37,003 nt of DNA from the NCBI GenBank assembly GCA_032718475.1, contig JAUCBJ010007923.1, positions 1 to 37,003 on the forward strand. The letters run 5' to 3'. The notes under the pieces were generated by a model. The model did no database searches, was not told the origin of the DNA, and was given only the letters and a program-made list of their open reading frames with translations. The translations under genes and the position numbers were made by a program. This document shows positions 1 through 37,003 of the stretch, piece after piece; within the stretch, counting starts at the first letter, position 1, and each line of letters opens with the position of its first letter. Origin of the DNA: Nemertoderma westbladi (taxonomy: Eukaryota; Animalia; Xenacoelomorpha).

Positions 1-2
1 AT

Positions 3-6773: not shown

Positions 6774-7186
6774 TTAGGAGTTTACAAATAGATTTCCACG
6801 TACCTGTACACCGTAGTAAGGACAGAGGTAGAATTCCATTGTCTTTATATGTGAACATTGAGGGTAGTACCCTTATGTGTCACATAGGAGCGGGATTTGG
6901 AGGTATAAGAAATGGAATTCTACTTGGAACTCACAATATTGAGACATTTTCGAAATTTTAGACAATCCATTTGGATTTGAAAAATTTTTTAAAATTTTCT
7001 CCAGTGAATAGATTTCAGGGTACAGTCGGGTGGAACTCAAAATTAGAGAAACAAGAGAGGAAGACTTGCGAGCCTTTCTTAAAATTTTAATTAAATTTTA
7101 CACGGTCTTGTTTCAATAAGTTACGTCAATAAATAGACTCCCCTATATTTATTACTAATTCTTGACTGCTTATTTTCTGATAATAG

Positions 7187-8659: not shown

Positions 8660-8701
8660 AAGGGAGGGCAAGGGTGGACGGAAGACTCGTGGGCCTTTCT
8701 T

Positions 8702-9350: not shown

Positions 9351-9658
9351 GCCTTAAATACGTAAAGTTTGAATTTGTAATTATTTTGTATCGAATCATT
9401 ACGTAAAAAGGAAGTATTGTTTGAAATTTAATTGTAAATATGTAAGTACGCCCTAAGTATTCTATAGTTTGATTGATTATTGGTGAAAACCGTATATTTT
9501 ATGCACGATAATATCCTGTTTTCATGGAGCGGTATAGAATTATATTCCCTAAATGCCGTGGATTTTCAAAATTTTATTTTATTCGAATTAACTTTGTAAA
9601 GATTGCTTTGAGTTCTCATTAGTATTGGTTCTATCTATTATGCATCTATCGGTCAAGT

Positions 9659-9745
9659 GGTTCAGTAGCTCAGTTGGTAGAGCGTTGGAAATTATATGTG
9701 TAGTAGGTATCGAGTTCGAATCCTAGTAAGTGCGAATTATTTTTT
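9659..9745 (+). ncRNA. tRNA-derived Pol III unit (pseudo-tRNA or SINE head)
   Basis: A-box/D-arm TAGCTCAGTTGGTAGAGC, B-box GAGTTCGAATCC, then a T-run; anticodon and acceptor stems do not pair. Confidence 0.65.
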
Positions 9746-9799
9746 GTGCAGAATTTCAACTCATTTAAATTAACCGCTACAAATTAATTGCATTTGTCT

Positions 9800-10124
9800 G
9801 TACCAATAAGGCTGTAGTTATTTGATTGTAACCAATGTCGTGCAAGTTATATATTAGCTGGACCAATAAGCTATCTTTAAAACCTTGTTAGAACCCATAG
9901 AACAATCGAGAATTTTCTCGATTGATTGCAGCACAAATTTAGTATATAAAGGTGCGATTCGTTCATTAGTTATCAATCTCAATCTTATATCTATACTTCT
10001 CAGATTTATTCTGTCGTGCTTAGTTTATTCTCAGATTACATTGTATTGTAATTGTGTCTTCTGTAATAAAGTCAGAATATTCTCTCAGCTTTTCTGTTTT
10101 ACTATGAATTCACTACGGTGAACA
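9800..10124 (+). promoter_or_regulatory. Putative 3' LTR core (left edge unresolved)
   Basis: CCAAT at 9803, 9832, 9863; palindrome aatcgagaattttctcgatt 9904-9923; TATATAAA 9943; AATAAA 10065; ends GGTGAACA 10124. No second LTR in the window to confirm. Confidence 0.55.
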
Positions 10125-11447
10125 AACTCAGGGACAGGATGGCCGGCTAGAGATCGGGCCACAGCAATGAACGGGAACATCACGGGAATGTAGACGAGAG
10201 ACAACCCGCAATACCATCTAGAGTTATTCGCCCATCGCCTGAAAGGTTAGACAGCGTTCGATCCTTGCTACCTAAGTGTAAGACCAAAAGATCAAAAGAG
10301 GTAGACGTAGTGACACGCTGCAAGCCTAAAATTACATCATAGGGACTGTACTGTCTTGATTCAGGAAAACCCACAGTAGACCTTCACATTCCTACGGGGG
10401 GAGGGAGAGAGAGCAGAGATACTAGTACGCAGATAGGACGTAGGCACACCGGTACAAGGCATACACATTGGTTAGGGTGCAGCAAACTGTACGCTTAACT
10501 CTTGCTAAGTACAGGTGCGTCTGTGACTATTTGCCGTGCAACGGTGTCCATTACATTAGAACTTGTAGGCTAGGGGGGTTGCTGTGTTTTCACCTGAATT
10601 GGGATTGTACCGTTCAGGCGGTAGGGCAGTTTACACTAGGCGCAAATAAATTGAGGCTATCAGGGATATACTAACATCTACCGTGTCCCCGCCAACGCCC
10701 TAATAGGAAGTTACCCGGACTACCTGGGTGACTAAAATTCTAGATAGGAGCCAGGATAGCTATTAGTACCCGTACGCCTACAGTAGTAAACTAACACATC
10801 TCTTCTTAGTATCAGGGACCTGGTACCTAAAATTGCCGAATTCTGGGCGTAGTATTAACCTTATGCCTGAATTTGAGTCCTGGAAATACGCAAGAGGGGA
10901 AGGAACCTTATCATTCGTGAGTATTGGACCTACAAGTTATAAAATTAGAATATTCGTAAAATGCACACCGTACCCAGTAATTATATATGTGAAGGAGCAA
11001 AACTGTTTTGACCATTCAGAATTAACACACGCGCGTTAGAAATTATTTACACCTCGAAATATATAAAATTAACTTTGTCCGTACTGTGCTTTGCCCGCTA
11101 GTTAGACATCTCCAAATATCTGCCTCTGTACCTAGCTAGCGTCCCTTTGCCCAACCATATAAATCACACCGCGGCAAAGTATACGAGCCCCTTAGTCCGT
11201 CAGTGAGTCAGCCTGATTTTAGGATTCGCTGCGCGGGATTTGTTTTATCGAAGTTTGTCTGCTCGTAGACTGTTTTCTGCCTCACCGGTTATAAGAGATC
11301 GATACTGCAATATATTCGCTTACTTAGGGTTTACTGTTTTGGTGAGAAGGTCGGATTTATGATTTGATTTACAAACTTTACAGTAGGATATTGCAGGTAT
11401 TGTTACCGTCTCTTCCGATAGTAGGAATAGGCGTATCTCTTCCAATT

Positions 11448-13684
11448 ACTTGGGTTGTCCAGCAAAGATGTCTTCGGCTAGTTCTTTGTCGATGAATGTA
11501 CCTGTGCTGCCGGAGTCAAGGAGGGCGTTTACTATGAGACTCTTCCCTAGTCCGTGGACTCTCAGCTGCACTACAGGGAATTCCTGGATTCCGACGTTGG
11601 AAGTCGGCACTTTCCAAGATGGTTGCCGATCCGGAATAGTCAGTCGAGGATCTTCTTCGCTTGTTTCAGTCTCATACGTAAGTGCTCGATACACTGCGGT
11701 GTTTATCATATAACAGGATTCGTTTTTGTGGGAGAAGGATTCGTCCGTGTAGAATCCTTCCATCTCAGAGCTGTGGTCAGTGTCGTTCACATCACTGAAT
11801 TGGACATGTAGTTCGGGCTCACTTACCTGACTCGTGCGGGTTCTGTCAAATTCTGTGTGCAGCAAGATATGATGTTTTGCGCCGCACTTAGCACACCTCG
11901 CGTCTGAGTAACAGGTCCGCCGTTGGTGTCCTTGTTTGAGACAATTATAACACAACTGCTTATCCCACATGACATCATGTCTATCCTTTAGGGATTTCTT
12001 CAAGAATTCATCACATCCACTCAAGCGATGGGGCCCGTCGCACAATGCACATTTGGGTTTGATGTTACTTCCTTTAACCTGTGTGGTGTTGTGCACACTT
12101 GTTCTTTCCTCAGGTTTTCTTCCATGAATTATCTTAGGAGACGTGGGAGGAGTTTTTGTTACCTGTTCTCTCCTGTCACTGGTTTGAGACTTAAATTTAC
12201 TTACGTCTTTCTTCGATTTGTTTACATAATAAGATCTTTCAGTGTCTTTCCCGCTGTTCTCCTCGTGGGAGGTTTGGCTTTCGCCATCGTCTGTATAACA
12301 CACTTTTGTTACCTTTCCCCTAGAAACGGGTTTTTCACTCTCCGGTGTCTTCTCTCGGGACCGCTTTAGGAGCTGCAATCTTACCTCTCCATTTAAGAAT
12401 GACATGAGATCAGCCATGGTAGGGTCTCTTTGTTGCTGGTCCATCATATAGAGAACTCTTGTCCCAATGCGTACCTACTCCACCCTTTGGCAAAGTACTG
12501 TAGATGCCACGGCTCCAACAACCATAGAACTCTGATATTCATGAGACTTACCTAACCAATCTAGTTGTCTACAGATCTCCTGAATCTCATCGGAAAACTC
12601 TATAATCCCGCTGCTAAAGAACTTTCGGGGCGCTACTAATTTCGCATACAAATACCTAGCTATGTTAGTCCTATTACCATACCTGATGTTTAGTGTATCC
12701 CAAACTTGTCTTAATCCATCTGGATGTCCAATAAACTTTAACGCCATTAACTTGGGAGGTCCTTCCAAGCATTAGATGAGAAATCTAAGTTTCTCTCCGT
12801 TGGATAGTACAGAGTTCTGTATGTTATCTTTGTAATATTCATTAAAAGATAACCATTTCATCTCATCTCCATTGAACTTGACGATTTCTCCCACCTTTAC
12901 CGCTTGGCGGGCTTCGGTTCTAGCCATTTGATGCGTAAAACTTTCTTGGGCCATCGTATTATTTAATATCGAGTTATCTGTATATAAATTTCTCGGATTA
13001 TGATCAGGTCTATATGGAATATCATTATCAACAGGTTTATAATTACCCTTAATAGGGTTTACTATAGGAGTTTCTACTTCACTAGCAGTATAGATGCGTG
13101 TAGGCTCCACACCTTGCGCATGAAATACTTCAGACCTAACTGGTTGACACATTCTTACAGGCGGTGGTGGTATACCCCTTTGTATATTTACCAATTTATT
13201 GCGTTCTAACGTGATACTCTGCTGCACTTCTTGCAACTCTAACCTACCCTCTCTTACTGTTCCCTTTAACTGCTGAACAGTCCCCTCCAACTCTCGGACC
13301 TGTTGGGAGGAAGGTGCATGATTTTCCTCTATCTGCCCAAGCAGGAGATCCATCCCCCGCCGTCGCTCATCCACCCACTCTACCGCCAAAGCGGGAGCCG
13401 CCAACATAGTAGCGGGTAGACGAGGGACGACGGGCGACAATTCTTTGATGTCTTGCTCAGCGTCCAGGACCGGGATTGATTCAGGGGCTATTCTAATGGG
13501 CACAGGTAGTTTAGTACTGTGCAAAGGGAATTTAGAGTTAGGTTCTGGAAGTACAGGGGTCTCTATCACAGAGGGGGTGGCTTCGAGAACAGGCCTAATA
13601 ATTTCAGGCTCATCTACTATAGTAGGGAGTCTTTCTTCCATAATAATTTGGTCTGTAGGCGCAGGATTACTTAAATCTACACTA
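11448..13684 (-). pseudogene. Duplicated gag-protease segment (copy of 14586-16822)
   Basis: Direct repeat at offset 3138 with about 7 substitutions seen; shares the TAA stop (12772 / 15910) and has an extra TAG at 12475. Confidence 0.95.
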
Positions 13685-16600
13685 CACTGAAGCATTGGCC
13701 GTAAGACGCCGATGTAGTTGCGCGATTCTCTTTTCCGCTAAGGGTCGGTTATTTATAAAGTTGGGTTTTCGCCGTCGGAATGGAAGACCAATCTCATAGC
13801 GACCTTGATCTTTAAGAAAACGGGTAGTCATTTCCTGAATCTGCTTGGCTCTCTCTTCCTCGACGGACAAGGCCTTGTCGTAGGAATTAGGCTCTACAAC
13901 TTCTTGAGTAAAGAATCGCACGGCGTGTTCATCGCGAATTTTATTGTTGTATCGCTCTACCACTTCGTTCAATTTGTCGTTGTAGGTGAATTATCCGCCA
14001 TGATTGATGAGATGGCACAGGTTTACTTGGTTTAACCAAGTTTCATTTTCGTTGAGGAGGTCGATTGTATTTTCCTCGTCGTATAATTGGTTAATATCGT
14101 CATTGTCTGATGAGTATGTTATTCCCTCAGTTGTGGTTTCTCCCTCACTGATTTCTTCTTCACATTCATTCACCTGATGTATCCTCTCCTCAGGGAGTCT
14201 TTCCATGAGTGTTCTACGGGAAGGTCCAGTGAAGTACCAACCTACTCTCATTCTTCCCGCGTACGCTTGTAATGGTTGCGGTCAAGCAGGCCGTTTTTCT
14301 AATGTCTCAAGCGCCTCGTGCGCATTTTGGCCGATTAATATCTGCACCCCTGGGTAGTCGGTGTTGAATCTAGGGATATTATGCTGCTGGGTAAAATGGT
14401 CTTCATCCCAGTTGTAAGGTTCCACTTGGCTGGTAGCAAAGTTCTTTATCGCCACCATTTTAATGACCTTATGCTATGTTCTCCTAGTTCATCCTGGGGA
14501 GTGGACAACACACCCACATAGTAATCTGTAGCTACTGTGGATTTCCAAACCTGCATAATTCCTGAAAGGTTCAACTTAGTTCGGAACTTGGGTTGTCCAG
14601 CAAAGATGTCTTCGGCTAGTTCTTTGTCGATGAATCTACCTGTGCTGCCGGAGTCAAGGAGGGCGTTTACTATGAGACTCTTCCCTAGTCCGTGGACTCT
14701 CAGCTGCACTACAGGGAATTCCTGGATTCCGACGTTGGAAGTCGGCACTTTCCAAGATGGTTGCCGATCCGGAATAGTCAGTCGAGGATCTTCTTCGCTT
14801 GTTTCAGTCTCATACGTAAGTGCTCGATACACTGCGGTGTTTATCATATAACAGGATTCGTTTTTGTGGGAGAAGGATTCGTCCGTGTAGAATCCTTCCA
14901 TCTCAGAGCTGTGGTCAGTGTCGTTCACATCACTGAATTGGACATGTAGTTCGGGCTCACTTACCTGACTCGTGCGGGTTCTGTCAAATTCTGTGTGCAG
15001 CAAGATATGATGTTTTGCGCCGCACTTAGCACACCTCGCGTCTGAGTAACAGGTCCGCCGTTGGTGTCCTTGTCTGAGACAATTATAACACAACTGCTTA
15101 TCCCACATGACATCATGTCTATCCTTTAGGGATTTCTTCAAGAATTCATCACATCCACTCAAGCGATGGGGCCCGTCGCACAATGCACATTTGGGTTTGA
15201 TGTTACTTCCTTTAACCTGTGTGGTGTTGTGCACACTTGTTCTTTCCTCAGGTTTTCTTCCATGAATTATCTTAGGAGACGTGGGAGGAGTTTTTGTTAC
15301 CTGTTCTCTCCTGTCACTGGTTTGAGACTTAAATTTACTTACGTCTTTCTTCGATTTGTTTACATAATAAGATCTTTCAGTGTCTTTCCCGCTGTTCTCC
15401 TCGTGGGAGGTTTGGCTTTCGCCATCGTCTGTATAACACACTTTTGTTACCTTTCCCCTAGAAACGGGTTTTTCACTCTCCGGTGTCTTCTCTCGGGACC
15501 GCTTTAGGAGCTGCAATCTTACCTCTCCATTTAAGAATGACATGAGATCAGCCATGGTAGGGTCTCTTTGTTGCTGGTCCATCATATAGAGAACTCTTGT
15601 CCCAATGCGTACCCACTCCACCCTTTGGCAAAGTACTGTAGATGCCACGGCTCCAACAACCATAGAACTCTGATATTCATGAGACTTACCTAACCAATCT
15701 AGTTGTCTACAGATCTCCTGAATCTCATCGGAAAACTCTATAATCCCGCTGCTAAGGAACTTTCGGGGCGCTACTAATTTCGCATACAAATACCTAGCTA
15801 TGTTAGTCCTATTACCATACCTGATGTTTAGTGTATCCCAAACTTGTCTTAATCCATCTGGATGTCCAATAAACTTTAACGCCATTAACTTGGGAGGTCC
15901 TTCCAAGCATTAGATGAGAAATCTAAGTTTCTCTCCGTTGGATAGTACAGAGTTCTGTATGTTATCTTTGTAATATTCATTAAAAGATAACCATTTCATC
16001 TCATCTCCATTGAACTTGACGATTTCTCCCACCTTTACCGCTTGGTGGGCTTCGGTTCTAGCCATTTGATGCGTAAAACTTTCTTGGGCCATCGTATTAT
16101 TTAATATCGAGTTATCTGTATATAAATTTCTCGGATTATGATCAGGTCTATATGGAATATCATTATCAACAGGTTTATAATTACCCTTAATAGGGTTTAC
16201 TATAGGAGTTTCTACTTCACTAGCAGTATAGATGCGTGTAGGCTCCACACCTTGCGCATGAAATACTTCAGACCTAACTGGTTGACACATTCTTACAGGC
16301 GGTGGTGGTATACCCCTTTGTATATTTACCAATTTATTGCGTTCTAACGCGATACTCTGCTGCACTTCTTGCAACTCTAACCTACCCTCTCTTACTGTTC
16401 CCTTTAACTGCTGAACAGTCCCCTCCAACTCTCGGACCTGTTGGGAGGAACGTGCATGATTTTCCTCTATCTGCCCAAGCAGGAGATCCATCCCCCGCCG
16501 TCGCTCATCCACCCACTCTACCGCCAAAGCGGGAGCCGCCAACATAGTAGCGGGTAGACGAGGGACGACGGGCGACAATTCTTTGATGTCTTGCTCAGCG

Positions 16601-17721
16601 TCCAGGACCGGGATTGATTCAGGGGCTATTCTAATGGGCACAGGTAGTTTAGTACTGTGCAAAGGGAATTTAGAGTTAGGTTCTGGAAGTACAGGGGTCT
16701 CTATCACAGAGGGGGTGGCTTCGAGAACAGGCCTAATAATTTCAGGCTCATCTACTATAGTAGGGAGTCTTTCTTCCATAATAATTTGGTCTGTAGGCGC
16801 AGGATTACTTAAATCTACACTAGCTAGTTGCCTTCTCACTGCGGGAGGCAAATTAGGCAATTTCTGTCGGTGTGGCACTCTTCTACGTCTGCTGGGACGA
16901 GATTTATTTCCTCTACCTTCAGGATCCGTTGTATCGCCTTCATCAGAGGAGGTAAATCCCTGTCTCCTGGGAGTAGATCGACTCAGCATCTGCATCTGAG
17001 AAGCTATTCTCTGTTTATTTAAGTAATCTTGCTTCACTTGAAGATTTTCCAACTCTAGTTGGGCTGTCTCTTCAGATGCCTTCTGTTCTGCTTCTACCAC
17101 TGCCTCTGCCGCTTTTCTTTCTGCTTCTGCCGCTGCCACTTTTCTTTCAATTTCTGCTGCTGCCGCTTTTCTTTCCGCTTCTGCCGCTGCCGCTTTTCTT
17201 TCAATTTCCGCTGCTGCCGCTTTTCTTTCCGCTTCTGCCGCTGCTGCTTTTCTTTCCGCTTCTGCCGCTGCTGCTTTTCTTTCAATTTCCGCTGCTACCG
17301 CTTTTCTTTCCGCTTCTGCCACTGCCACTCTCCTTTCAATTTCCGCTGCTGCCGCTGCCGCTGCCTTTCTGTCTTCTATTCGTGTTTTCCTTAATTGTTC
17401 TTCCTGTTCCCTAGTGATGAGGATGCTTTCATCATATTTAGCCTGCTCAGCGGCTAACATTTCCGCATCTAACGAGTCCAACACAGATTTGGCTCCCTCA
17501 CTATTAGGGTGAAGTCCAGCTAGCCTTCTCCTTAGCTCTTTGTCACCTATGAATCGTTGATAGTCTGAAAGATAGATGTCAATAGCGTCTTTCTTCTGAG
17601 GTTTTTCGGATGTAACTTCGCTTTCCACCTGAGAAAAGGTAGCGTCTGTTGATTCTCCATGGGTCATGCGCTCGGTTAGCTGAGCTTTCCATTGTGTCGT
17701 TCCTTGGACTTTAAGACTCAC
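13685..17721 (-). pseudogene. Bel/Pao gag-protease-early pol, disrupted
   Basis: ORFs 15910-17721, 14446-15906, 13991-14251 and 13682-13972 are consecutive pieces broken by in-frame stops (15910, 13991) and a frameshift near 14450; truncated before RT. Confidence 0.9.
17095..17370 (-). repeat. 27-bp coding tandem repeat, AAAAE(A/I)ERK
   Basis: About 9-10 units in the gag N-terminal region. Confidence 0.92.
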
Positions 17722-19390: not shown

Positions 19391-20360
19391 GGTGTAAATT
19401 TGCCTGACAGCCAGATAGGCCTACTACATTACCTACCGGTAGGCGGGGTATAGCTATTAATAATCAGTAGGGCCTAGCTATATTATTATATCATGGCTCC
19501 AAAAAGCAAGCAAACAGTCGGCCAAAGCCGGAGGCGACCCAAAGGCTCCTCTTTCGATAGCTGCTACCCGAGGGTAGGGGTGGGCGATACTCCTATCCCA
19601 AGATTTGGCCATGGCTCCCAACGCCACCATAAATATAAGCTAACTTATATATAACATAATTTATGTCATTTTTACATTTATTTATACAGCAACTAATATA
19701 AATTGTGCAGTTTCTATCACTTATAATGTATATGTACAATCATTTCGTAATGTTAAAATTCTGGAATAAAAACTACATACATACTTGTTGCAAAGTACTT
19801 TACAGTGTTCTGATCCTCTCGGCTATATTTTCACTCACTCACTAACGTTCATTCGTGTAACAAAGCCACTCGGATCATCACACTGTAAAGTGCTACTTTA
19901 CACACAAGTATTTAAATAGTTATTACATTGTTTTATATTGCAAAGTCGCGAAAGATGTTTGGTTTGTAATAAAAAAATGAGACAAGACAATCTATCTCGT
20001 AATATGGAAACACATTGAAAGGCTAAATTAATGGAACCGTTACCAAAAAAATTAAAAAAACAGGATGATATTTATAGTGAAGATGAAAAGAAAGAGAGAG
20101 ATGAGCGTGAAATATTAAAGATAAAACATTCAATGGAAAATAAATGGCATAAAGTTATGAATTATTTTGAGAGGGATACAAAAACAGTTACCCCTAGTAC
20201 CTTTAGTAAATGAAGAAAATTTGAGTGAGAAAGATGAAGAAGAAGAGGATGATGAGATGGAGAATGAAAATAGTGACAGACAGGATGAAGTTTAAGAGAG
20301 TGAGGAAGTGCAAACGAATCTTATTGTTTATATGTTTTTAACATCCATGAAATTGTATAA

Positions 20361-20503
20361 ATTATTAAGTAATTTAATCAGGACTTAGGATGATCCAACT
20401 CAATAGCAAATGGAGCGGATAAAATGAATTCGCCACCAGCGGGGATCGAACCCGCGTCTCCCGATAAACGTTCAGGTATGCTTACAATTACACCACAGAC
20501 TGA
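20361..20503 (-). mobile_element. tRNA-derived SINE-like unit, copy 1
   Basis: Minus strand: degenerate A-box, stem CCTGA-ACGTTTA-TCGGG, T-arm GCGGG-TTCGATC-CCCGC; 3' tail shared with copy 2. Confidence 0.75.
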
Positions 20504-20692
20504 CACATATACGTATATATACGTATAAATTCTTAAGTAATTTAAATAGGACTTAGGATGATACAATTAAGATTCGTTTGCAGTACAGGTCATAACTGCT
20601 ACTGTATTAGAATACAGATTAAATCCATCCGTTAGGGTGGACTGTATTCAATGGAAACCATGAGGTAGCTTACCACTTATAGCAAATCAATC

Positions 20693-20826
20693 TCCGTGTT
20701 GTAGTGGTTAGCATACCTAAACGTTTATCGGGAGACGCAGGTTCGATCCCCGCTGGTGGCGAATTCATTTTTTCCGCTCCATTTGCTATAGAGTCATCCT
20801 AAGTCCTGTTAAAATTACTTAATAAT
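20693..20826 (+). mobile_element. tRNA-derived SINE-like unit, copy 2
   Basis: GTAGTGGTTAGCAT A-box region, GGTTCGATCCC B-box, T6 run; inverted copy of 20361-20503. Confidence 0.75.
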
Positions 20827-25774: not shown

Positions 25775-25784
25775 AGTAGTAGGG

Positions 25785-26110
25785 TCTTCCTCCTCTCTGT
25801 GACAGTTAGACCTAACTGACACCCATTGGGTGTCATATGACACCCAATTATCACCCTATGGGTGTCATTGGGTGTCATTGGCGCCAGACTGTCTGGGTGA
25901 CACCTCCCAATTAGGCTAATTAGACCCTAATTGACAGGTGTCATCAATTAATTAGTATAATTAAACCCTAACAGGTGTCATATGACTCCTAATTAGGGTT
26001 TAATTGATTATCCTAATTAATCAGACTGATTAGCGCCCTGACACACAATGGGTCATCAGTGATGTCTAACTGTCGCAGAGAAGGGGGAAGAGGGTGTCAT
26101 AAGTGACACC
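25785..26110. repeat. Subterminal fold-back with nested palindromes
   Basis: 25785-25835 is an imperfect inverted repeat of ~26039-26091; inner IR aattaaaccctaa/ttagggtttaatt; many TGACAC/GTGTCA and TAATTA motifs. Confidence 0.88.
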
Positions 26111-26795
26111 GCAGCTCTTTTATTCATAATACTTATTTATTTATATTTAATTTTAATTAATTATTTTATTCGTATTTATTCATTTGTACTTTATTTTAAA
26201 TTAATTAATTGTATATATTACTTTTACTTTATACATTGATTTCTATTTTTAGATTAATTAGTTTTTATATTACCAACGAGATCACTATGACATAATGTCT
26301 ATTTTTAACTTTATAATGGCTATGGTATACTGCTCCCTACTGGCAACTATCAACTGCGTTCATCGGCGGGGGCCCCTCCTCTGCCATCATTATTCATTAA
26401 CTAGATACGACAGGCAGTGAATCTATACATATACCCCCAAGGCAAATATAAATCAGCGGTCCCGTCTGTTAGCAGCCCCCTCGATGACTCACTAATAATC
26501 CCAATGCGGCCTTGACTACAGCAAATCCGTATATCGCCCAAGGCTAATGCTCAAGCGGCCCTCCATTGTTCCCACTATAGCCGGCGTCGCTTTGTCCCTT
26601 TCCTATATCCAGGCAGCCCGTATCATAACAATGAAGCGCCTCTAATCACGCATTCCTCTCTACTAATCCCTTTCCTTTGCACCAGACCTGCTTCTGTTAT
26701 ACAGCCAACTCAACATAATTAGTCCAGATGCCTACAGGGGTTTCTAATATAGAATCAACACGAGAAGTTGCCCTGGTTACCGCTTATGCATGAAC

Positions 26796-26890
26796 AGCCA
26801 ATCAGCGGGCTTCATTTCTACTGCTGCGTTCTGATTGGCTCATTTAAGAGACAAGGGCCTCCCTTACTAACCGAATTGCTATTTAATACG
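26796..26890 (+). promoter_or_regulatory. Putative Pol II promoter for the polymerase transcript
   Basis: Inverted CCAAT pair agccaatcag (26796) / ctgattggct (26831); TATA-like TATTTAA at 26880. Confidence 0.5.
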
Positions 26891-27037
26891 TCCCCACTAA
26901 TATATTAGGTCATTATTTCAATTGCAAGTTACGATTAACATCATTTACCATTATTTTGTTTTCGAATTTAATATTATTTATTTAAGAATATTTATTTGTT
27001 ATCGTCAGTCAACTATCCAGTTGTATAGTTGTATTAT

Positions 27038-27854
27038 TGTCATTTCGCTGCGTTATCGCTCATCGTCGACAACAAACTTTCCGCGTATCCACCGCGTAAT
27101 ATTTCAATATTTCTAATTTCCGATACCATTCCGTTCTATCGGTTGATAAACTCTCTCGTCGTCCACGTCAACCAACTTCCTTGTCACCAATGAACTTCCA
27201 AACTTCTTCTTTCCGTGAATATTTACTAACACCGTAAGTAAAAACTGCCTTCCATCTAGCTATACTTTCGACGCCGCTAGCAAACAATTTACATTTAATG
27301 TCTACCGGTACAACAGTATTGCAGTAGGCTCATTATTAATTACTGTCAGACTGCGGTGGTACCGATAGCCTAAACCGTGATCGAAGCATTCGATCAATAG
27401 GCCTACATCCGCCTATTTGCTTACAGTATTTTTTATCTTTTTACAAATAATCAACTTATTTTTCTAGTGTCATTTCGCCGCGTTAACACTCATCGTCGAC
27501 AACAAACTTTCCGCGTATCCGCCGCGTAATATTCCAATATTTCTAATTTCCGATATCGGTACCATTCCGTTCTATCGGTAAATAAACTCTCTCGTCGTCC
27601 ACGTCAACCAACTTCCTCATCGCCACCGAACTTCCAAACTTCTTCTTTCCGTGAATATTTACTAATACCGTAAGTAAAATCTACCTTCCACCATCTGACG
27701 ATACTATCGATGCCGATAGCAAACAATTTACATTTAGGCCTAATGTCTACCGATACAACAGTATTGCAGTAGGCTCATTATTAATTACTGTCAGACTACG
27801 GTGGTACCGATAGCCTAAACCAGGATCGAAGCATTCGATCAATAGGCCTACATC
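27038..27854 (+). repeat. ~430-bp duplicated non-coding exon-intron unit
   Basis: 27038-27409 resembles 27468-27854; GTAAGT donors at 27234 and 27670; near-identical TTTTCTAG acceptor blocks end at 27467 and 28384. Confidence 0.85.
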
Positions 27855-28391
27855 TGTCTATCTGCTTGTCTACCTGACTACCGGTACCCCATCATTCGAG
27901 TTAGCCTAATGCCATCATAGTAACGATATAGACCCTACTGAACAACACTGAATACTGCAGTTTTCACTATATATCCTACTGACTAACTGAGTTCTCACAC
28001 AGCGATTAGCTAGGCCTATCGTTGATTTGTATTGGTTAACGCTACCGGTACGTCTGACTTCTGGCAGACTTTTCACTAGCACTACTGCTCTGACTGACTG
28101 ACTGTTGTTTATAGACCCTCTTTCCACGAATAATAACTGGCATCGCTTTTGTGTCTTGGTTATCGCCACTATCTAACCGCTGGTATACTAACACTTCCAC
28201 ACTAGATACTGCCGACTGCCTGCTTTATGTTTCACTGACTGATTGCTACAATACAGCAATAGGCCTAACTATATAAACACAGTATTGTTGCCTAGTAACC
28301 GATTAATACCTACTGTTTTACTTTATTTTTAGCAAGTATACAGTATTTTTTATCTTTTTATAAATAATCAACGTATTTTTCTAGATTCAAG

Positions 28392-29186
28392 ATGCCTATG
28401 TCTACCAATAAAGATAGCTGCCCCATCTGCGACAAAGAGATGCGGAGTGATAATCTAAAATCACATATTAAAATTCATTTCGCGCAATATAGATGCGACT
28501 GTTGCCCGACTTGGTCTTCGGAAAAGAAGACGCTGGTTGGCCATCTTGTTTCGTGTCCTCAGGGGGGAACAGGATTTAGTTACGTAAACGAGCCAGCCGA
28601 TTGCCGCTGCGGGGATTCGCTCACCCTGTCATCCTTTTCTGAGCATGAATGCTACACTCGACTTTTTTCGCGGAAACGCAAAACTCCGACTACCTCCCAC
28701 TCATCCCCCATCAACTCTACTCCAGAACAAGTCGGCGGCGGCGGCTCCAATAATGAACCTTCAACTTCACGAGATTCTATTTCCCCAAACAATCCATTTC
28801 AACCCCCCTCCAACGGAAGCGCACACGGACGACTGTTTACCTATAACAACGACCTCGCAGAAACAAGACTCGATGCTGAATTAACATTAAACGAAAATTT
28901 TCCACACATTCAAGAACACGTTAGTAGCCATTTACGTAGTGCCATGGGAACTTTTTTAAGAGTCTGGCTTACAATCAACATCGTAATGGAGCGTGAAACG
29001 AGCGAGGGATTTCAAATTGAATCTTTCTGTTTTAAATCTAGCGGTAACAATAATCAAATTCTAAATAATAGCGACTTTAATAACTGGTTTTCTAGCGCCG
29101 TCAATCGTATCGATCAACTGTTAAAGCGTGTTTCTCTGCCTCGGCTCGGGTTGGCGCATAATAGCCATCGAGCGAATAACTATTGA
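28392..29186 (+). CDS. pPolB N-terminal part (C2H2 finger and terminal-protein region), frameshifted relative to the main ORF
   Basis: CPICDKEMRSDNLKSHIKIH; a +1 shift near 29125 joins it to the GSGW motif typical of Polinton pPolB N-termini. Confidence 0.75.
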   Translation: MPMSTNKDSCPICDKEMRSDNLKSHIKIHFAQYRCDCCPTWSSEKKTLVGHLVSCPQGGTGFSYVNEPADCRCGDSLTLSSFSEHECYTRLFSRKRKTPTTSHSSPINSTPEQVGGGGSNNEPSTSRDSISPNNPFQPPSNGSAHGRLFTYNNDLAETRLDAELTLNENFPHIQEHVSSHLRSAMGTFLRVWLTINIVMERETSEGFQIESFCFKSSGNNNQILNNSDFNNWFSSAVNRIDQLLKRVSLPRLGLAHNSHRANNY

Positions 29187-32100
29187 GATTGCGCGGTCCC
29201 AACGCAACCCCTATTTAAAGGGTCAAGGCTTCAATAATTCTAAATTATTATTAAATAAAAAATGTACCGTAAGCGTAGACTGCCCGCTGGGGGAATGCTT
29301 TAAATACGCAGTATTGGCCGCCGCAAATTATAAGAAAATTGATAGAAAACAAAATAATATCAAAAGAATTTCAACGTTTACTCCTTTTCTAAACATGTTT
29401 GATTTTTCCAATTTAAGTTTCCCGGTGGACAGAGTAACTGGTATTCCCCAGTTTCTGAAAGCCAACCCTATATACTGTATAAACCTTCTTTATTGGAGTA
29501 ATACGGAAGAACTCTCCATTCTAAGTCAACCAGATAGCGCGCACTGTTCCGGTAAAACTGTACTAAACTTATTATTTATCGAAGCCACAAGCAAAAACCC
29601 TGCCCACTACGTAGCTATTACTAACATAGATAGACTAATAAATTCAAAAGATTCAGACGGTAACAAGACGCACTGCGAACGCTGTCTCAGAGGCTTTTAC
29701 ACTGACAAATCACTGGGAGAACATCGAGAGCGCTGCTATACGGGTAAACGCCAACTCGAGTATATGCCCGAAAATCTCTTGGTTAAATTTGACAGGTACG
29801 ATAAGACTCTATCCCCGCCTTTCTGTATATACGCCGACATTGAAACTATTCTAGAACCTACAAACAATATTAAACTCCCACAGAAACATATAGCTAGCGC
29901 GGCAGCCTTTTATACAGTACCAAATCAGAAATTAATTAACCCTCCTAAAACAGATGTTCAAATTTTCCGCGACGATGGCAGTAACCACGTAATGCGCGAC
30001 TTTCTAACCGCTATGGAAAGTCATTGTAGGGAGTTATACGATTGGTCCATTTCTAGTACAAACACACGTGCCCCCATGCAACTCACTACTAGCCAACAAA
30101 CTGACTTTAATAACGCTACACAATGCTACGTCTGCAACTGTAATTTAACCCCCGATTCTCATAATTTAAACCTCAATGACAATCTCAGCACCAAAGTCCG
30201 CGATCATGATCATTATAGCGGGGAGTATCGAGGGGCTGCTTTCGTCAGCTGCAACAGGAAACTTTCCCTAAAACGGAATAATTTTTATATTATATTTCAT
30301 AACTTGAGGAAATTCGATATGCATTTACTACTAAAAGAAGGAATGACCGATAGTTCTAGAACACACTGGAAAATGACCGTAATACCAAAAAACACCGAAA
30401 CTTATATTCACCTTAAAGTTAGCTTTCCAATCGATCCGAGTACCCCAACAGCCAACGCTAAAGAAAGTATCTCCATTAATTTTCTAGATTCCTATCAGTT
30501 TATGACTGCCAGCCTAGATAATCTTAGTAGCTATCTCACTAAAAATAACAGTAACCTAGCAACAGCCATACCCCATACACTAGCTCAAATGACCCAACTC
30601 TATCCCAACATTAGCGATAACACAATAAAAAACAAGGGCGTATTCCCATATTCCTACATTCAAAATATTTCAAACCTACACGAAACTACACTCCCCCCAT
30701 TAGAAAGCTTCTATAATGATCTCAAATTGGAACAATGTAGCGCAGAAAACTATCAGCGCGCGCTTACTACTTGGGATGAATTAAACTGCCTAACAATCTT
30801 CGACTATATGATTGGCTATTTGGTTCTAGACGTTACCCTATTGGCTGATACTTTCGAGCAGTTCCGATCCCTCTGTCTTACTAATTATGGACTCGAGCCC
30901 GTAATGTACTTCACTGCCCCTGGATTAACTTACGACGCAGCGCTGAAATTCACGCAATCAGAAATTCAATTACTATCAGACGCTTCCATCTACTCGGACT
31001 TTGAAACAAATATTAGGGGTGGTCTAGTTTTCTTGAATACACATTCCGTAGACGCAAATATCCCCGATAAACCCGACTATGACTCCAGTCTCCCCAAGAA
31101 ATATCTAATTCCCATCGATGCGAATAACCTTTACGGCTGCGCCCTGAGCCAGAAACTTCCCTATGCTAATATTAAACTCGTAACTACCCCCATAGACCTA
31201 GCTACAATAGACGCGAGTGGGGACACTGGTTATTATTGCATAGTTGATCTACATTATCCGAAAGAAATTCATGATTTGACCGCCGATCTGCCTCTAGGAG
31301 CAGAGAAGATGTCAGTCCCTAAATCCTTTCTTAGCGAATACATGGAAGATCTTTGGGAGCATTACAATCTCACCGATACGGCTACCTGTAGACCATACAA
31401 CGATACCTGTACTAAGCTACTACTACATCAGTTTAATAAGGTTGAATACGGTATCCATATTAAGCTACTTCAGCTCTATTTGAAGCTCGGTCTTAAACTT
31501 ACACAAGTACACAGGGTCTACTCTTTCTCACAAAAATATATTTTCAAGGACTACATTAGTTTTAATACGAATAAAAGACAGTCGACAAATAACCCATTCG
31601 AGATCCTATTTTATAAGTTGATGAACAATGCCTTGTATGGGAAATGCCTCCAAAAGGTTAGAGACCGCGTTTCTTTCAGGTTATGCAATAGCGACGAACA
31701 ATGCGATTTGCTCTTAGCCAAGCCCAACCACGAATCGTTTGTTGTCTTTACCCCCAACTTGAGTGGACATACTTTCACTAAAGAGGCTGTTTGCCTAAAT
31801 CAGGGCGTGTTCATCGGTTGCACTATACTAGATCTATCTAAGCTACAGATGTACGACCTATTTTACAACAAACTGAAACCTCTAGAACAAAAACTGGATT
31901 GCCAGATTCGCTGTCTAGCTGGTGACACGGATTCTCTAATGCTAAGCGTAACTAATACACCACAGCTAACCTTTCTACGGGCAATGTTTGAGGGTGGTTT
32001 CCTAGATACTTCCAACTACAGTACAACACATCCACTCTATACCATTAAACACAAAGCGGCTCTCGGCTTTGTAAAAGATGAGAGCTGCAGTTTGCAGTAT

Positions 32101-32445
32101 AAACAGTGGGTTTTCCTTAAACCAAAGGTCTATAGTTTTCAATCCTATGATGCCCCAATCAAGAAAACCGCCAAAGGTGTATCTAGATCGGTTGTCGCTA
32201 AGCAACTAACACACGAGGATTATGCAGACTGTTTTGAAAACGAGGCAATGCTCTTCCGCTATAACTCTACCTTCACTTCTAGAAAGCATCAAATTTTTAC
32301 TGGTCATGTCTATAAGAAGGCACTAACGCTCTGGGATACGAAATCATATTGGAGTAGTAAATATAGCAGCAAACCATACGGGCACTATAGCACTAAGCTT
32401 GTTAGACCGGCGAAACGAGTAGTAATCCCCCCTACTAGAATTTAA
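29128..32445 (+). CDS. polB: Protein-primed family B DNA polymerase with inserted HNH/endonuclease VII-like domain
   Basis: Exonuclease YADIE, FHNLRKFD, FLDS; polymerase IDANNLYG, KLMNNALYGK, GDTDS; CYVC...RDHDHYSGEYRGAA..CN. Confidence 0.96.
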   Translation: MFLCLGSGWRIIAIERITIEIARSQRNPYLKGQGFNNSKLLLNKKCTVSVDCPLGECFKYAVLAAANYKKIDRKQNNIKRISTFTPFLNMFDFSNLSFPVDRVTGIPQFLKANPIYCINLLYWSNTEELSILSQPDSAHCSGKTVLNLLFIEATSKNPAHYVAITNIDRLINSKDSDGNKTHCERCLRGFYTDKSLGEHRERCYTGKRQLEYMPENLLVKFDRYDKTLSPPFCIYADIETILEPTNNIKLPQKHIASAAAFYTVPNQKLINPPKTDVQIFRDDGSNHVMRDFLTAMESHCRELYDWSISSTNTRAPMQLTTSQQTDFNNATQCYVCNCNLTPDSHNLNLNDNLSTKVRDHDHYSGEYRGAAFVSCNRKLSLKRNNFYIIFHNLRKFDMHLLLKEGMTDSSRTHWKMTVIPKNTETYIHLKVSFPIDPSTPTANAKESISINFLDSYQFMTASLDNLSSYLTKNNSNLATAIPHTLAQMTQLYPNISDNTIKNKGVFPYSYIQNISNLHETTLPPLESFYNDLKLEQCSAENYQRALTTWDELNCLTIFDYMIGYLVLDVTLLADTFEQFRSLCLTNYGLEPVMYFTAPGLTYDAALKFTQSEIQLLSDASIYSDFETNIRGGLVFLNTHSVDANIPDKPDYDSSLPKKYLIPIDANNLYGCALSQKLPYANIKLVTTPIDLATIDASGDTGYYCIVDLHYPKEIHDLTADLPLGAEKMSVPKSFLSEYMEDLWEHYNLTDTATCRPYNDTCTKLLLHQFNKVEYGIHIKLLQLYLKLGLKLTQVHRVYSFSQKYIFKDYISFNTNKRQSTNNPFEILFYKLMNNALYGKCLQKVRDRVSFRLCNSDEQCDLLLAKPNHESFVVFTPNLSGHTFTKEAVCLNQGVFIGCTILDLSKLQMYDLFYNKLKPLEQKLDCQIRCLAGDTDSLMLSVTNTPQLTFLRAMFEGGFLDTSNYSTTHPLYTIKHKAALGFVKDESCSLQYKQWVFLKPKVYSFQSYDAPIKKTAKGVSRSVVAKQLTHEDYADCFENEAMLFRYNSTFTSRKHQIFTGHVYKKALTLWDTKSYWSSKYSSKPYGHYSTKLVRPAKRVVIPPTRI

Positions 32446-32459
32446 TTTAATTTTTCTAG

Positions 32460-32975
32460 AATAAGAAATTGAACAACAAAATAGAAATAACCAATAAACA
32501 GTTTACCGGAAAAAACATTGCCAAATTTGAACTAGATAAAATTTCACAGCAAATTATAGGTCAAAGTAGCTTAAAACCAAACATGTTTATCTACAAAGGT
32601 GACGATTCAACTTTAATGCTATTTCCCAGCGGCGCAGTAACAATTGTAGGCCTGTGCAATAATTTAGCTAGTGAATTGCTTTATTTAAAACAAACTATCG
32701 ATATGCAATTACAAAATTTGAAACTTAATACCGAAACACGAACTATTATTTTTCCAAGTGTTAATTTTAAATTATTCATGAAAAAATGTGGACATCATAC
32801 AATTAATAATAAAGCAATATTTATTAGCTATACCCCCGAATTATTTTGCGCGATTAGAATATATATAGGACGTGCATATTTCAGTGTATTTCATAGTAAT
32901 AAAATCGTTTCCATGTGTACTGCCGGTGAATTCCCCGGATCATTATCTATTTTACAAACTTTATTATTAAATTAG
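32460..32975 (+). CDS. Divergent TATA-box-binding protein (TBP)-like protein
   Basis: ~170 aa with two TBP-like repeats: STLMLFPSGAVTIVG (cf. TALIFSSGKMVCTG) and SYTPELFCAIRI...SVFHSNKIV (cf. SYEPELFPGLIY...LIFVSGKVV). No ATG at the start; preceded by acceptor TTTTTCTAG ending 32459. Confidence 0.75.
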   Translation, partial: NKKLNNKIEITNKQFTGKNIAKFELDKISQQIIGQSSLKPNMFIYKGDDSTLMLFPSGAVTIVGLCNNLASELLYLKQTIDMQLQNLKLNTETRTIIFPSVNFKLFMKKCGHHTINNKAIFISYTPELFCAIRIYIGRAYFSVFHSNKIVSMCTAGEFPGSLSILQTLLLN

Positions 32976-33043
32976 TTTATTTACTATGGTATACATGAAA
33001 GTTTACTATATTATTTATTTTGTGTTGGTTTTTATTTTTCCGT

Positions 33044-34075
33044 GAGTAGGGTTTGAATCCGTGACCATCCGTGTTACCCACTTTTTATAATTGCATTAGT
33101 AGGACTCGAACCCTGGTTTAACTTATTTTGTGTTGGTTTTATAATGGTCGCGAGTAGGGCTTGAACCCGTGACCTTCTATTTATTTTCCATAAAACGGGA
33201 TACGAGAAGGGGTCGAACCTGCGAGCATATATTTTTCCTATTTTGTGTTTAGTTTAGTTACTCTAGTTATTCTATGTTTACTTTTTATATTTTCATGATT
33301 AGGATTCGAACCCTGGTTTATCTTATTTTGTGTTGGTTTTATAATGGTCGCGAGTAGGGATTGAACCTATGACCTCCTGTTTATTTTCCATAAAAACGGG
33401 ATATGAGTAGGGATTGAGCCCGTGACCTTCTGTTTTTCCTATTTTATGTTTAGTTTAGTTACTCTAGTTATTCTATGTTTACTTTATTTTGTGTTGGTTT
33501 TATATTGGTCGCGAGTAGGGATTGAACCCGTGACCATCTGTTTATCCTATTTTATGTTTACTTTTTATATTTTTCCATAAAACGGGATACGAGAAGGGGT
33601 CGAACCTATGACCATCTGTTTATCATATTTTGTGTTTAGTTTAGTTACTCTATGTTAAAGTGAATTTTCACATTATATTTTCATGATTAGGATTCGAACC
33701 CTGGTTTAACTTATTTTGTGTTGGATTTATAATGGTCGCGAGTAGGGATTGAACCTATGACCTCCTGTTTATTTTCCATAAAACGGGATACGAGTAGGGA
33801 TTGAGCCCGTGACCTTCTGTTTTTCCTATTTTGTGTTTAGTTTAGTTACTCTAGTTATTCTATGTTTACTTTTTATATTTTCATGATTAGGATTCGAACC
33901 CTGGTTTAACTTATTTTGTGTTGGATTTATAATGGTCGCGAGTAGGGATTGAACCTATGACCTCCTGTTTATTTTCCATAAAACGGGATACGAGTAGGGA
34001 TTGAGCCCGTGACCTTCTGTTTTTCCTATTTTGTGTTTAGTTTAGTTACTCTATGTTAAAGTGAATTTTCACATT
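33044..34075 (-). repeat. Array of 15 tRNA T-arm/B-box-like units, ~200-bp higher-order period
   Basis: Minus-strand GG(T/C)TC(G/A)A cores near 33044, 33101, 33146, 33197, 33301, 33346, 33398, 33507, 33584, 33689, 33734, 33785, 33889, 33934, 33985. Confidence 0.9.
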
Positions 34076-34259
34076 ATATTTGTGTTAAATTATAAATTTA
34101 TGTTACAATTATTATCTATAATATAAAAAACAGAAATATTCGAGTTATATTGCATATGAGCAATAAATTACAATATACGAGCTGTTAATTTTTCTTATTC
34201 TTACTAAACAAATGTTAATCTTCAAGTCAGTCCTTATTGGATCGAACTACAGTATAATA

Positions 34260-34886
34260 ATGAGTGGGCCTATAGATGTACGGTTTAGGTTTGGTGCCAC
34301 AATGTTAATGGCTGGCCCTTCTGGCAGTGGTAAAACTACATATTTGGAGCAAATATTACAAAATAGCAAGCAAATTTTTGACGCGCAACCATCAGAGATT
34401 ATTTGGATATATGGGCAAACTAAACCGATTGTGAAAGGTGTCAATATTACTACCTTAAATGAAATTCCGGAACACTTTAATCAAAATGTAAAAAGACAGA
34501 GTGTGATTATATTCGATGATTTAATGTCTGAGCTAGAGAATTCAAAGCAAATAACAATTTTATTTACCAAAGTCGCGCGCCATTCGCATTCTTTTGTTAT
34601 TTTTTTAACGCAAAACCTATTTCAGAAAGGAGGGGAAGCACGTACTCGATCTATTAACTCTACCTATTTTTTACTATTTAAGAATCCGCGTGATTTAACG
34701 CAGATCAGAACCTTAGCCTATCAGATGAACCCAAATAATCCAAAATTTTTAATTAGCGCTTACCACGACGTTACACAGCAAGCATTCAATCCGCTTTTAA
34801 TCGACTTTCATCAACAGACTCCAGAAAATCTGCGGATAAGGGCTAATCTATTCACGATGGAACATTGTGTTTATCAGCCTTTGTAA
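34260..34886 (+). CDS. A32/FtsK-like DNA packaging ATPase
   Basis: Walker A GPSGSGKT, Walker B IIFDD, ARH, LTQN, FKNPRD. Alternative start 34212. Confidence 0.93.
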   Translation: MSGPIDVRFRFGATMLMAGPSGSGKTTYLEQILQNSKQIFDAQPSEIIWIYGQTKPIVKGVNITTLNEIPEHFNQNVKRQSVIIFDDLMSELENSKQITILFTKVARHSHSFVIFLTQNLFQKGGEARTRSINSTYFLLFKNPRDLTQIRTLAYQMNPNNPKFLISAYHDVTQQAFNPLLIDFHQQTPENLRIRANLFTMEHCVYQPL

Positions 34887-34998
34887 TATTCGTAAAAATG
34901 TTATTGTTGCCAATTGTCTGCTATTTAATAATAGTTTATCTTTATTTGTTATACTATACCAAAAAAATTCTTCTTGTTATGCGTATTCTAGAGCAGTT

Positions 34999-35340
34999 AT
35001 GGATCTCAATATACGAAAACATAGGAAAGAATTAACATTCCTGAGAAATAGTAGCGCGGTTGCAAGAGGATTTTTTATACGACATAAAGCAAGCAACGAG
35101 TTGATTCGCCTTCTTGTTAATGTGACTCTAAATACTCTATTCGGAAATTTGCATATCAATAATCGAATTTTAAAGAAATTAGCACCCTTTAAAAATAATA
35201 TGCGTAAACTGAAAGCAAAAAAATCATTAACCTTTCAACGTAAAACACTATCTCAATTTGGCGGATTTTTGCCACTTTTATTGCCCCTGTTGCTTGGTGC
35301 CACAGAAATCGCAACAACCGTAGCTACCGCGCTTACGTGA
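34999..35340 (+). CDS. Basic virion core protein precursor, adenovirus pX-like C-terminus
   Basis: Lys/Arg-rich, then QFGG|FLPLLLPLLLGA resembling an adenain-type cleavage site plus hydrophobic helix. Confidence 0.7.
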   Translation: MDLNIRKHRKELTFLRNSSAVARGFFIRHKASNELIRLLVNVTLNTLFGNLHINNRILKKLAPFKNNMRKLKAKKSLTFQRKTLSQFGGFLPLLLPLLLGATEIATTVATALT

Positions 35341-35537
35341 TGTCTTTTAAAAAATTATATTTAGTAACACCCGAACAATATAATATAATAAAGTCAAAAA
35401 CAACTCCATTTTCCCAAAAAATAAAAACAACCAAAAAAAGAACGGTCATAAAAAGTCGAAATAGGCAAACAATAAACGAAAGAAAAGGAAGGGTGTTGAG
35501 GTTATTCGATTACACCCGAAAGAGTAGATATATATAA
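35340..35537 (+). CDS. Small basic hypothetical Polinton protein
   Basis: ATG overlaps the previous TGA; MSFKKLYLVTPEQY start, basic composition. Confidence 0.5.
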   Translation: MSFKKLYLVTPEQYNIIKSKTTPFSQKIKTTKKRTVIKSRNRQTINERKGRVLRLFDYTRKSRYI

Positions 35538-35612
35538 TGTCATGGATAAAAAGATTAACGGTAACCTGTAACCTTCATTGTCTATGTAATTCTAGAACAG
35601 TTAGTAATAGCT

Positions 35613-36681
35613 ATGACGAGCAAGATTGTGGACCGCAAGTTACGCAAAATTTACTACAGCGTTTCAAATGTTGCGGGATTTTCAAGTCAAAAAAAACTAA
35701 GTACTGCAACAAAAATCAAACCAGCTATAGTCAAAAAATGGTTGCAAGGTGAATCTAATTACACTCTACATGCACCGGCGCGAAAACATTTCCCTACGAG
35801 TCGCATGTATTTTTATGGTATAAGCGACACAATTCAAGTGGATCTGATTGATATGCAACAACATTGGGAAACAAATTCTGATTATGGATATATTTTGACC
35901 GCAATAAACTGCTTTAGTAAGCGTGGATGGGCTTTACCCCTGAAACGAAAAACGGGAAAAGAAATTAAGCGTGTTCTAGAAACAATATTTAATGATGAAA
36001 CACCTAGAAATTTGTGTACAGATCAAGGCTTGGAATTTGATAATAAACTGGTTTTGGATTATTTGAAACTAAAAAAGGTGAGGTACTATACAACCCGGTC
36101 TCAATTTAAGGCTGCAATCTGCGAAAGATTTAATAGAACTCTGAAAACGAAAATGTTCAAAATATTTAATCGACGCAAAAATTTTAAATGGCTTAAAATA
36201 TTGCCGGAAATACTAGTAGCCTATAATAAATCGAAACATCGTTCAATTGGTATGGCACCGTTACATGTAAATAAAACAAATGAGGATAAAGTACGTAAAA
36301 AACTATATGGAGACCTCTCTAAAATTAAAGTTTCCCCTCCAGTCTTTAAAATAGGAGACAGTGTGAGGTTAAATATTTCTAAAAATAAATTTGAGAAAGG
36401 TTATATTCAAGGTTGGACAACGGAAATTTTCACAATCGCGAGGATAAGAATGGATAGATTCCCGATCGCAATGTATCATGTAAAAGACGCCCGGCGTGGG
36501 CCGTGAGATTGAGGGAAGCTTCTACCCAGAAGAAATTCAGAGAGTTCAGCAAAAGAGCAACATATTAGCAATCGATAACATAGTAAAATCGAGAAACAGA
36601 GGAGCCGAGCTGGAATATCTTGTTAAATTTAAAGGTTATAAGCGCGCAACCTGGATAAAACAGTCTCAACTACGGAAATAG
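35613..36681 (+). CDS. Retroviral-like DDE integrase with C-terminal chromodomain (frameshift ~36495)
   Basis: QVDLIDM, TDQGLEF, ERFNRTLK, KGYIQGWTTEIF; +1 frame continues EIEGSFYPEEIQ...EYLVKFKGY...TWI. Confidence 0.92.
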
Positions 36682-36684
36682 ATA

Positions 36685-37003
36685 ATGATGGATACTTATA
36701 TAAGCCTATTCTGTAATGGGCCAACTGAAAAGTTTCCAGGGAATACATTGGCCAAATTTACAAATGACTTACCATATACGTTAATTCTGAGTGAAAACAT
36801 GGAAGTGGGACTGAGTGAGATACAGTATTCTAGTTCTTTCTATAATTTAGTCGAAGAATCTCAATTTATTGTTTATCGAGATATTCATCAGTCAACTATA
36901 ATAAATTTCATGCCGGGTTTATATGGGAGCATAGAAGCTATAGTGGATCGAATAAATAGAGAAAATGATCACCCCTCCCTACCAGAATTAATTTATTTAA
37001 AGT
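36685..37003 (+). CDS. Minor capsid (penton) protein, 3'-partial
   Basis: Not in the ORF track; manual translation MMDTYISLFCNGPTEKFPGNTLAKFTNDLPYTLILSENMEVGLSEIQY...PGLYGSIEAIVDRIN fits the Polinton penton N-terminal pattern; open to the window edge. Confidence 0.85.
   Translation, partial: MMDTYISLFCNGPTEKFPGNTLAKFTNDLPYTLILSENMEVGLSEIQYSSSFYNLVEESQFIVYRDIHQSTIINFMPGLYGSIEAIVDRINRENDHPSLPELIYLK

Follow-up and report, generated by a model that had tools for sequence, protein, structure and literature searches.

A divergent TBP-like gene and a tandem array of B-boxes lie side by side in a Polinton of Nemertoderma westbladi, and the sequence gives an even chance to the reading that they are neighbours and not a fixed pair, the array being a later tRNA-derived insertion that would probably serve as a platform for host TFIIIC. 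A 3' fragment of a tRNA or tRNA-SINE would have been inserted behind the TBP gene and then amplified in tandem by slippage or unequal exchange, selection retaining from it a DNA motif read by TFIIIC and not an RNA structure. When bound by TFIIIC without TFIIIB and Pol III, the array could provide insulation or a pause in transcription between the polymerase and virion blocks. The most likely targets of the TBP-like protein would be Pol II promoters of the element itself, as in relatives that carry no array, which is put forward as a lead only. The new part is the B-box array inside a Polinton, TBP genes in such elements being already in print.

The window, i.e. the whole stretch of 37,003 nucleotides that was analysed, contains the Polinton in its last 11.2 kb. 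The Polinton/Maverick copy (25777..37003, plus strand) is lodged inside a LINE reverse-transcriptase remnant and continues past the window edge. It was checked for Polinton termini (AG...CT, long TIRs and a 6-bp target duplication): the left end, AGTAGTAG, is at 25777 and the right end lies beyond the window. Read depth rises at ~25.8 kb in all four DNA runs, matching this left end. A protein-primed polB, an rve integrase and an A32-type ATPase, the genes by which Polintons are recognized, are found together within the one element. The polB gene (28392..32445, plus strand; Pfam DNA_pol_B_2, E 1.7e-17) is carried in two frames in this copy, with a break near 29.1-29.2 kb. It is followed by an AG-ended tract that resembles a splice acceptor by a crude T/C score (32448..32459, plus strand) and abuts the TBP-like frame (32460..32975, plus strand, 171 aa from stop to stop). 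Next comes the array (33008..34081, minus strand), composed of 15 units of six types in a 200-nt higher-order repeat. The plus strand then encodes the A32-type packaging ATPase (34212..34886, starting at 34212 or 34260), a pX-like small basic protein (34999..35340; weak match to Pfam Adeno_PX, E 0.03) and the Pfam-identified rve integrase (35613..36678), whose C-terminal part is in another frame after a break near 36.49 kb. The last feature is the start of an ORF (36685..37003, plus strand) that is syntenic with the post-integrase gene of the related loci L099 and L115 and matches in sequence the ORF at the same position in both (E 1e-6 and 2e-5, respectively). The first-pass annotation had placed a TBP-like ORF and an adjoining ~1-kb B-box array between polB and an ATPase-pX-integrase-penton block. 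This layout was confirmed, with polB on one side and the ATPase, pX-like and integrase genes on the other. Within the block, the ATPase and integrase stand and pX is a weak match, while penton is an assumed label for the ORF at 36685, in which a Pfam search found no domain.

Other features of the element were observed upstream of polB. The left end contains a sub-terminal inverted repeat together with GGTGTCA/TGACACC repeats (25785-26091). A 390-nt non-coding sequence is duplicated at 27035-27867 (89%), with a strong GTAAGT donor at the end of each copy (27234 and 27670). An ATG at 27190 would be in frame with polB via an acceptor ending at 28384, which marks a possible spliced leader region.

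The frame at 32460-32975 encodes a divergent protein with a predicted two-repeat TBP saddle fold. All 30 matches obtained with this protein in the ESM Atlas are TBP, with a best score of 0.95. A model generated by AF2 from a 6-row alignment (pLDDT 75, pTM 0.58; the single sequence gave an unusable model with a pLDDT of 33) was submitted to Foldseek and every match listed to rank 44 was a TBP chain (E 1.7e-7 to 4.6e-5, TM about 0.6-0.75, identity 13-18%). A 12-row TBP profile compared with PDB sequences gave 35 matches, all TBP or TBP fusions. The TBP-like ORF first proposed at this place is borne out by these searches. Those made with the single sequence were almost empty (one without any match, one with two) and phmmer against the PDB found no TBP. 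In Pfam, the frame matches TBP (PF00352) over residues 8-65 only (E=3e-4) and scores 20.9 bits, below the gathering cut-off of 22.9; the relatives P0002, P0123 and P0124 and the TBP of L099 exceed this cut-off. Another candidate relative, P0001, was dropped as a spurious frog repeat protein. Four residues are invariant across the 12 TBP rows (Phe55, Tyr124, Phe129 and Phe144), of which the three Phe are presumably, by their motif, the intercalating positions. The protein is therefore like cellular TBP in its predicted two-repeat saddle and in the invariant Phe55, Phe129 and Phe144, and differs from it in its low identity, in a shortened first-repeat loop whose Phe is lost and in its sub-cut-off Pfam score.

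The first ATG of the frame (32583, residue 42) falls in the middle of a repeat, the first predicted strand beginning at residue 9, so that the protein must begin earlier. The acceptor-like tract at 32448-32459 is among the top 20 of the 302 YAG sites of the element by the crude T/C score. A contig at family depth is identical to the window over 32450-32536 (0 differences). Within the frame, the 10 substitutions listed at a level of at least 20%, inspected by hand, bring no in-frame start or stop, and no indel was seen. The ATG-less start, fronted by an acceptor-like site, is thus the state of the family and not the result of decay. Possible starts are a spliced leader ending in AUG, of the flatworm type described in parts of PMC9851317, the fourth codon, which is TTG, or an intron of 39/42 nt whose removal would join the frame in phase to polB. 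Neither of two strong upstream donors brings an ATG in frame with the TBP-like gene. The word TTCTAG is common in the element (14 occurrences on the plus strand and 9 on the minus strand) and hence is no proof of splicing.

The 15 units of the array are 52-108 nt long and all lie on the minus strand, with B-boxes starting at 34007, 33955, 33900, 33807, 33755, 33700, 33606, 33528, 33420, 33367, 33312, 33219, 33167, 33112 and 33059. On the minus strand of the array the motif GTTCRANNC is found 11 times where 500 shuffles predict 0.13, and the plus strand has none. The B-box consensus GGTTCRANYCY, as given in a part of PMC12498455, is exact in 11 of the 15 units and has one mismatch in the other four. 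Each unit resembles the variable loop and T-arm of a tRNA: when the 19-nt unit pattern was searched in viral contigs, 87 of its 99 matches fell within ARAGORN tRNAs, at the variable loop/T-arm. ARAGORN and Rfam found no tRNA and no RNA family in the array itself. The five T-stem pairs are all intact in 0/15 units vs 54/59 tRNAs, the comparison set being the 59 tRNAs out of 74 whose T-loop could be located. An A-box (TRGYNNARNNG) searched 30-95 nt upstream of the B-box has at best two mismatches in each of the 15 units, with a shuffle mean of 1.7; as a control, a host SINE gives one mismatch. Minus-strand folding was better than that of shuffles (z < -2) for two of six units, with a non-tRNA pairing. 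The array has B-boxes without A-box or Pol III gene, as the sequence criterion of ETC sites and boundary elements asks, and is likely a lineage-specific, tRNA-derived and B-box-only structure.

An improbable explanation is that the array is a Pol III small-RNA cassette comparable to those of VA-RNA or BLV miRNAs. Degenerate A-boxes or TATAAA words would then recruit TFIIIB, and short minus-strand RNAs antisense to TBP and polB would end at T4 runs. The perfect B-boxes speak for it, as do runs of at least four T on the minus strand (5 vs 1.2 expected), which each follow the start of a type-A B-box at a distance of ~24-25 nt. In BLV, moreover, the A-boxes are highly degenerate and B-boxes lie past the terminator (PMC12498455, in part). 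The A-box that does not exceed chance, the T-stem that is not kept, the non-tRNA pairing of the two units that fold well and the lack of any ARAGORN or Rfam match all speak against it, and they also disfavour the small-RNA cassette envisaged in the first-pass annotation. As for the minus-strand TATAAA words that had been noticed in the spacers, nine are present vs 2.65 expected, but 8/9 are located 23-24 nt after the start of a B-box, which makes the words duplicates of a single ancestral position on an A-rich strand and not nine independent sites.

The B-box letters of the array look preferentially conserved and appear to be selected, as the reading of the array as a TFIIIC platform would predict. 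Across the six related unit types, compared in ungapped columns anchored on the B-box, 6/8 constrained B-box columns are invariant against 5/41 flank columns (p 0.0007) and 3/18 near-flank columns (p 0.008), in a test whose profile is trained on the same units and whose AT-rich flanks mutate faster. Identity among the unit types is ~50% in the flanks and 76% in the B-box. Position 57 accepts only purines, position 59 is free and position 60 accepts only pyrimidines, in the units as in the 59 real tRNAs. Since the units had originally been cut at the B-box, the scoring was repeated after masking the box. The top 15 were then the 15 units, with a wide gap below them, so no unit has lost its B-box, and each unit type that was left out still ranked within the top 15 of 1120 positions. 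Offsets 11-15, directly 3' of the B-box, are nearly as conserved as the box, and the reader of the motif could therefore be another protein than TFIIIC. The affinity of TFIIIC for B-boxes is high, and at ETC sites, where neither TFIIIB nor Pol III accompanies it, TFIIIC has barrier and insulator roles (PMC12409998, in part), and boundary elements of fission yeast carry multiple B-boxes (PMC6829894, in part). From these properties the array would be a boundary or a pause site. We lean slightly towards TFIIIC binding the array in vivo; that the array serves as a boundary is a more tentative proposal, possible but doubtful. A TFIIIC-type insulator or decoy, one of the functions initially suggested for the pair, survives and gains support from the preferential conservation of the B-box letters.

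Other copies of the family were found in four public DNA runs, which come from three samples and three studies under one species label and one of which may be the source of the window. The depth of the element is far above that of its flank in the four runs, indicating a multi-copy family. No RNA run was found to carry the stretch, which is evidence neither for nor against its transcription. Contigs spanning the 3' end of the TBP gene and the first array units are present in three of the four runs and include copies ~10% diverged. In two of the four, a joint at 29226/32453 deletes most of polB and keeps TBP and the array. Contigs that run into unlike DNA amount to 1% in three runs and to 17% of 26 in the fourth, where loose ends lie at the AT-rich right edge; short contigs break at repeats. 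This low run-on argues against a dispersed host satellite, although it is not a genome-wide count. With the unit profile, the 25.8 kb of host DNA in the window gave no unit. The array was thus not seen as a host satellite outside Polintons, an eventuality raised in the first-pass annotation, either in these 25.8 kb or in the contigs, which are short.

The main rival, which appears rather unlikely, is a neutral internal satellite: a 3' fragment of a tRNA or SINE would have been amplified and homogenised by recombination between copies, and the B-box would persist without any binder as it is GC-rich and the array young. Such a satellite would explain that array length and unit order differ between copies, with joints that skip 239-903 nt, that unrelated tandem repeats are present in other Polinton loci (L120, L121, L124 and L126) and that the array is in none of the relatives. 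It accounts poorly for flanks of ~50% identity around a box of 76%, for variation falling at the degenerate positions of the B-box and for the absence of any flank-intact unit without a box.

Least probable of the explanations weighed is a cis-element for proteins of the element itself (the packaging ATPase, the terminal protein or the polB zinc finger), the likeness to B-boxes being a relic. The plus-strand core AGTAGGG of nine units is also found at the left terminus of the element (25778). This 7-mer match was however made post hoc, and the host part of the window has AGTAGGG at five further plus-strand sites. The array borders on the ATPase gene, and the block of TBP and array is retained in apparent deletion derivatives, i.e. 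in the copies joined from 29226 to 32453 and where contig depth falls from ~34.2 kb, ATPase onward, a fall that rests on contig depth, which is not copy number. The tRNA-like pattern at positions 57, 59 and 60 is not predicted by such a site.

The independence of the TBP gene from the array comes from related elements. A metagenome scan with the TBP alignment gave L115 and L116, and scans with integrase and ATPase added further elements. A TBP gene is present in 12 of 23 loci selected by integrase or TBP, which represent nine distinct elements from ~5 sources, five of the nine being single-sourced (four contigs of one MAG and L135, which carries the element of L099). L115 and L116 are one family with the order TBP, ATPase, pX-like, (extra ORF), integrase and next gene, and their ATPase starts only 28 nt after the TBP stop, with no repeat array in between. 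The neighbour after TBP is TFIIB in seven of the nine elements, the ATPase in one (L115/L116) and an unrelated ORF in one (L124). None of the nine carries the array in its available sequence. In 10 loci, the 1.2 kb after the TBP stop contain no B-box-like word or one, vs 14 in the window, the maximum per 1.1 kb in 17 loci is three, and the 190-kb bin with L099 has 27 such words vs 32 in a reversed control. In the window, the unit profile detected the 15 array units only; over 375 kb of related loci it gave no match below E 0.1. Scans of viral contigs, run with the ATPase on its own, with the array word and with TBP alignments, found nothing. The scan with the ATPase alignment gave 16 loci, among which only L099 has integrase and TBP, the other 15 being outside the co-occurrence count. 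In the tree, the window TBP belongs to one clade (100/100) with the array-less L115 and L124. The TBP gene therefore does not need the array and the pair is not fixed. The general coupled TBP and B-box system that had been proposed fails on the array being carried by 0/9 distinct TBP-bearing relatives, an outcome named beforehand as refuting it. The relatives are distant (ATPase ~40-47% identical to that of the window copy) and several contigs are partial (L115 3.6 kb, L116 2.7 kb, L134 3.9 kb), which leaves room for an array elsewhere in these elements or for a coupling limited to one lineage.

Such a lineage-limited coupling, in which TBP, redirected to the array, would work there with TFIIIC/TFIIIB as a decoy or an early-to-late switch, is very improbable. 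The TBP gene and the array are joined in other copies, diverged and polB-deleted ones included, but copies of one family would be expected to keep this linkage even if it had no function. The TBP branch of the window is long (2.61 vs 1.1-1.4 for L124/L115, a value to which the long-branch warning applies) and its ATPase branch is normal (0.79 vs 0.83-0.92), a difference equally fitted by relaxed selection. The coupling would also agree with the lack of a shared late box in the window copy; it is opposed by the array-less state of all nine other TBP-bearing elements and by the single ancestral position of the TATAAA words in an A-rich strand. Just as little credit can be given to an inherited TBP that would have been re-purposed (fast evolution, a start supplied by splicing) and that, with host TFIIIC on the 15 units, would form an element-encoded switch or sink for Pol III factors, gating replication versus virion genes.

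Under the preferred reading, the TBP-like protein would serve Pol II promoters of the element independently of the array. The best shared late-promoter hexamer of the window copy is found at 3/5 genes, and random window sets reach at least three in 97%, so a late-promoter role of TBP is a lead and not a result here. GGATAA and ATAAA(n)CAG were seen post hoc and are not claimed as promoter patterns. In L115, the ATPase, pX-like and post-integrase genes are each preceded, at 26-49 nt, by TATAAAC (731, 1389 and 3309); these sites are three of its four plus-strand occurrences and the minus strand has none. A clade with TBP beside TFIIB (Pfam TFIIB E 5e-11) comprises L099 (3582-4777), L126, L127, L129, L130, L132, L134 and L135. 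The TBP-TFIIB pair sits there between large and protease-like ORFs, which we take to be capsid and protease, and the integrase. The contigs of this clade, probably contaminants there, have been assigned to a giant-virus bin and to bacterial MAGs.

TBP genes are labelled in Polinton/adintovirus-related MELD elements in the figure legends of PMC8502044 and bioRxiv 10.1101/697771, which mention neither a TBP function nor arrays. The window copy shares with the MELD elements of those legends (PMC8502044) a TBP-fold gene in an element with polB, ATPase and integrase, and differs from them in being unusually divergent, with no ATG before the first strand, no adjacent TFIIB and an array behind the gene. 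Parts of the Bamfordvirae preprint contain nothing on Polinton TBP/TFIIB, and searches of openly readable main texts on Polintons with TFIIIC, on tRNA-derived tandem repeats and on B-box arrays in DNA transposons returned unrelated reviews only. As far as parts of PMC12409998 and PMC6829894 describe them, ETC sites and the multi-B-box boundaries and COC sites of S. pombe share with the array multiple B-boxes, the absence of an A-box or tRNA body and a position at the border of gene blocks. Here, by contrast, 15 tandem units lie inside a mobile virus-like element. The adenovirus VA RNA, the BLV miRNA cluster and the MHV68 TMERs share with it GGTTCRANYCY B-boxes and nearby T4 runs (PMC12498455, in part). 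Unlike these viral Pol III type 2 cassettes, the array has neither an A-box above chance nor a conserved hairpin, and its tandem layout is satellite-like. Herpesvirus ORF24/BcRF1 are viral TBP-like late/intermediate factors. Poxvirus VETF/VITF-3 likewise share with the window protein a virus-encoded TBP fold, which could direct stage-specific promoters (PMC12917281, in part). In contrast to the setting of such viral TBP-like factors, the Polinton has no viral RNA polymerase and no matching promoter box is demonstrated in the window copy.

Should the array be occupied by TFIIIC, a virus-like DNA element would have turned a tRNA fragment into an ETC-type chromatin boundary of its own, with which the Polinton could shield or time its genes after integration. 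The array would also offer a compact system, present in many copies, for studying the function of B-box-only TFIIIC sites. From the negative result on coupling, work on Polinton TBP genes should look towards TFIIB and Pol II promoters and not take the genes for default Pol III partners.

The host part of the window contains other mobile sequences. An inverted pair of a tRNA-derived SINE-like element (20360-20560 and 20690-20825, 88% over 139 nt) has an A-box at one mismatch and a B-box, and its sequence beyond the B-box is unrelated to the array units. Positions 1-17700 are occupied by the gag-pol ORFs of an LTR retrotransposon, presumably BEL/Pao-like by its motifs, one ORF being long (3-6773) and the minus strand bearing duplicated fragments.
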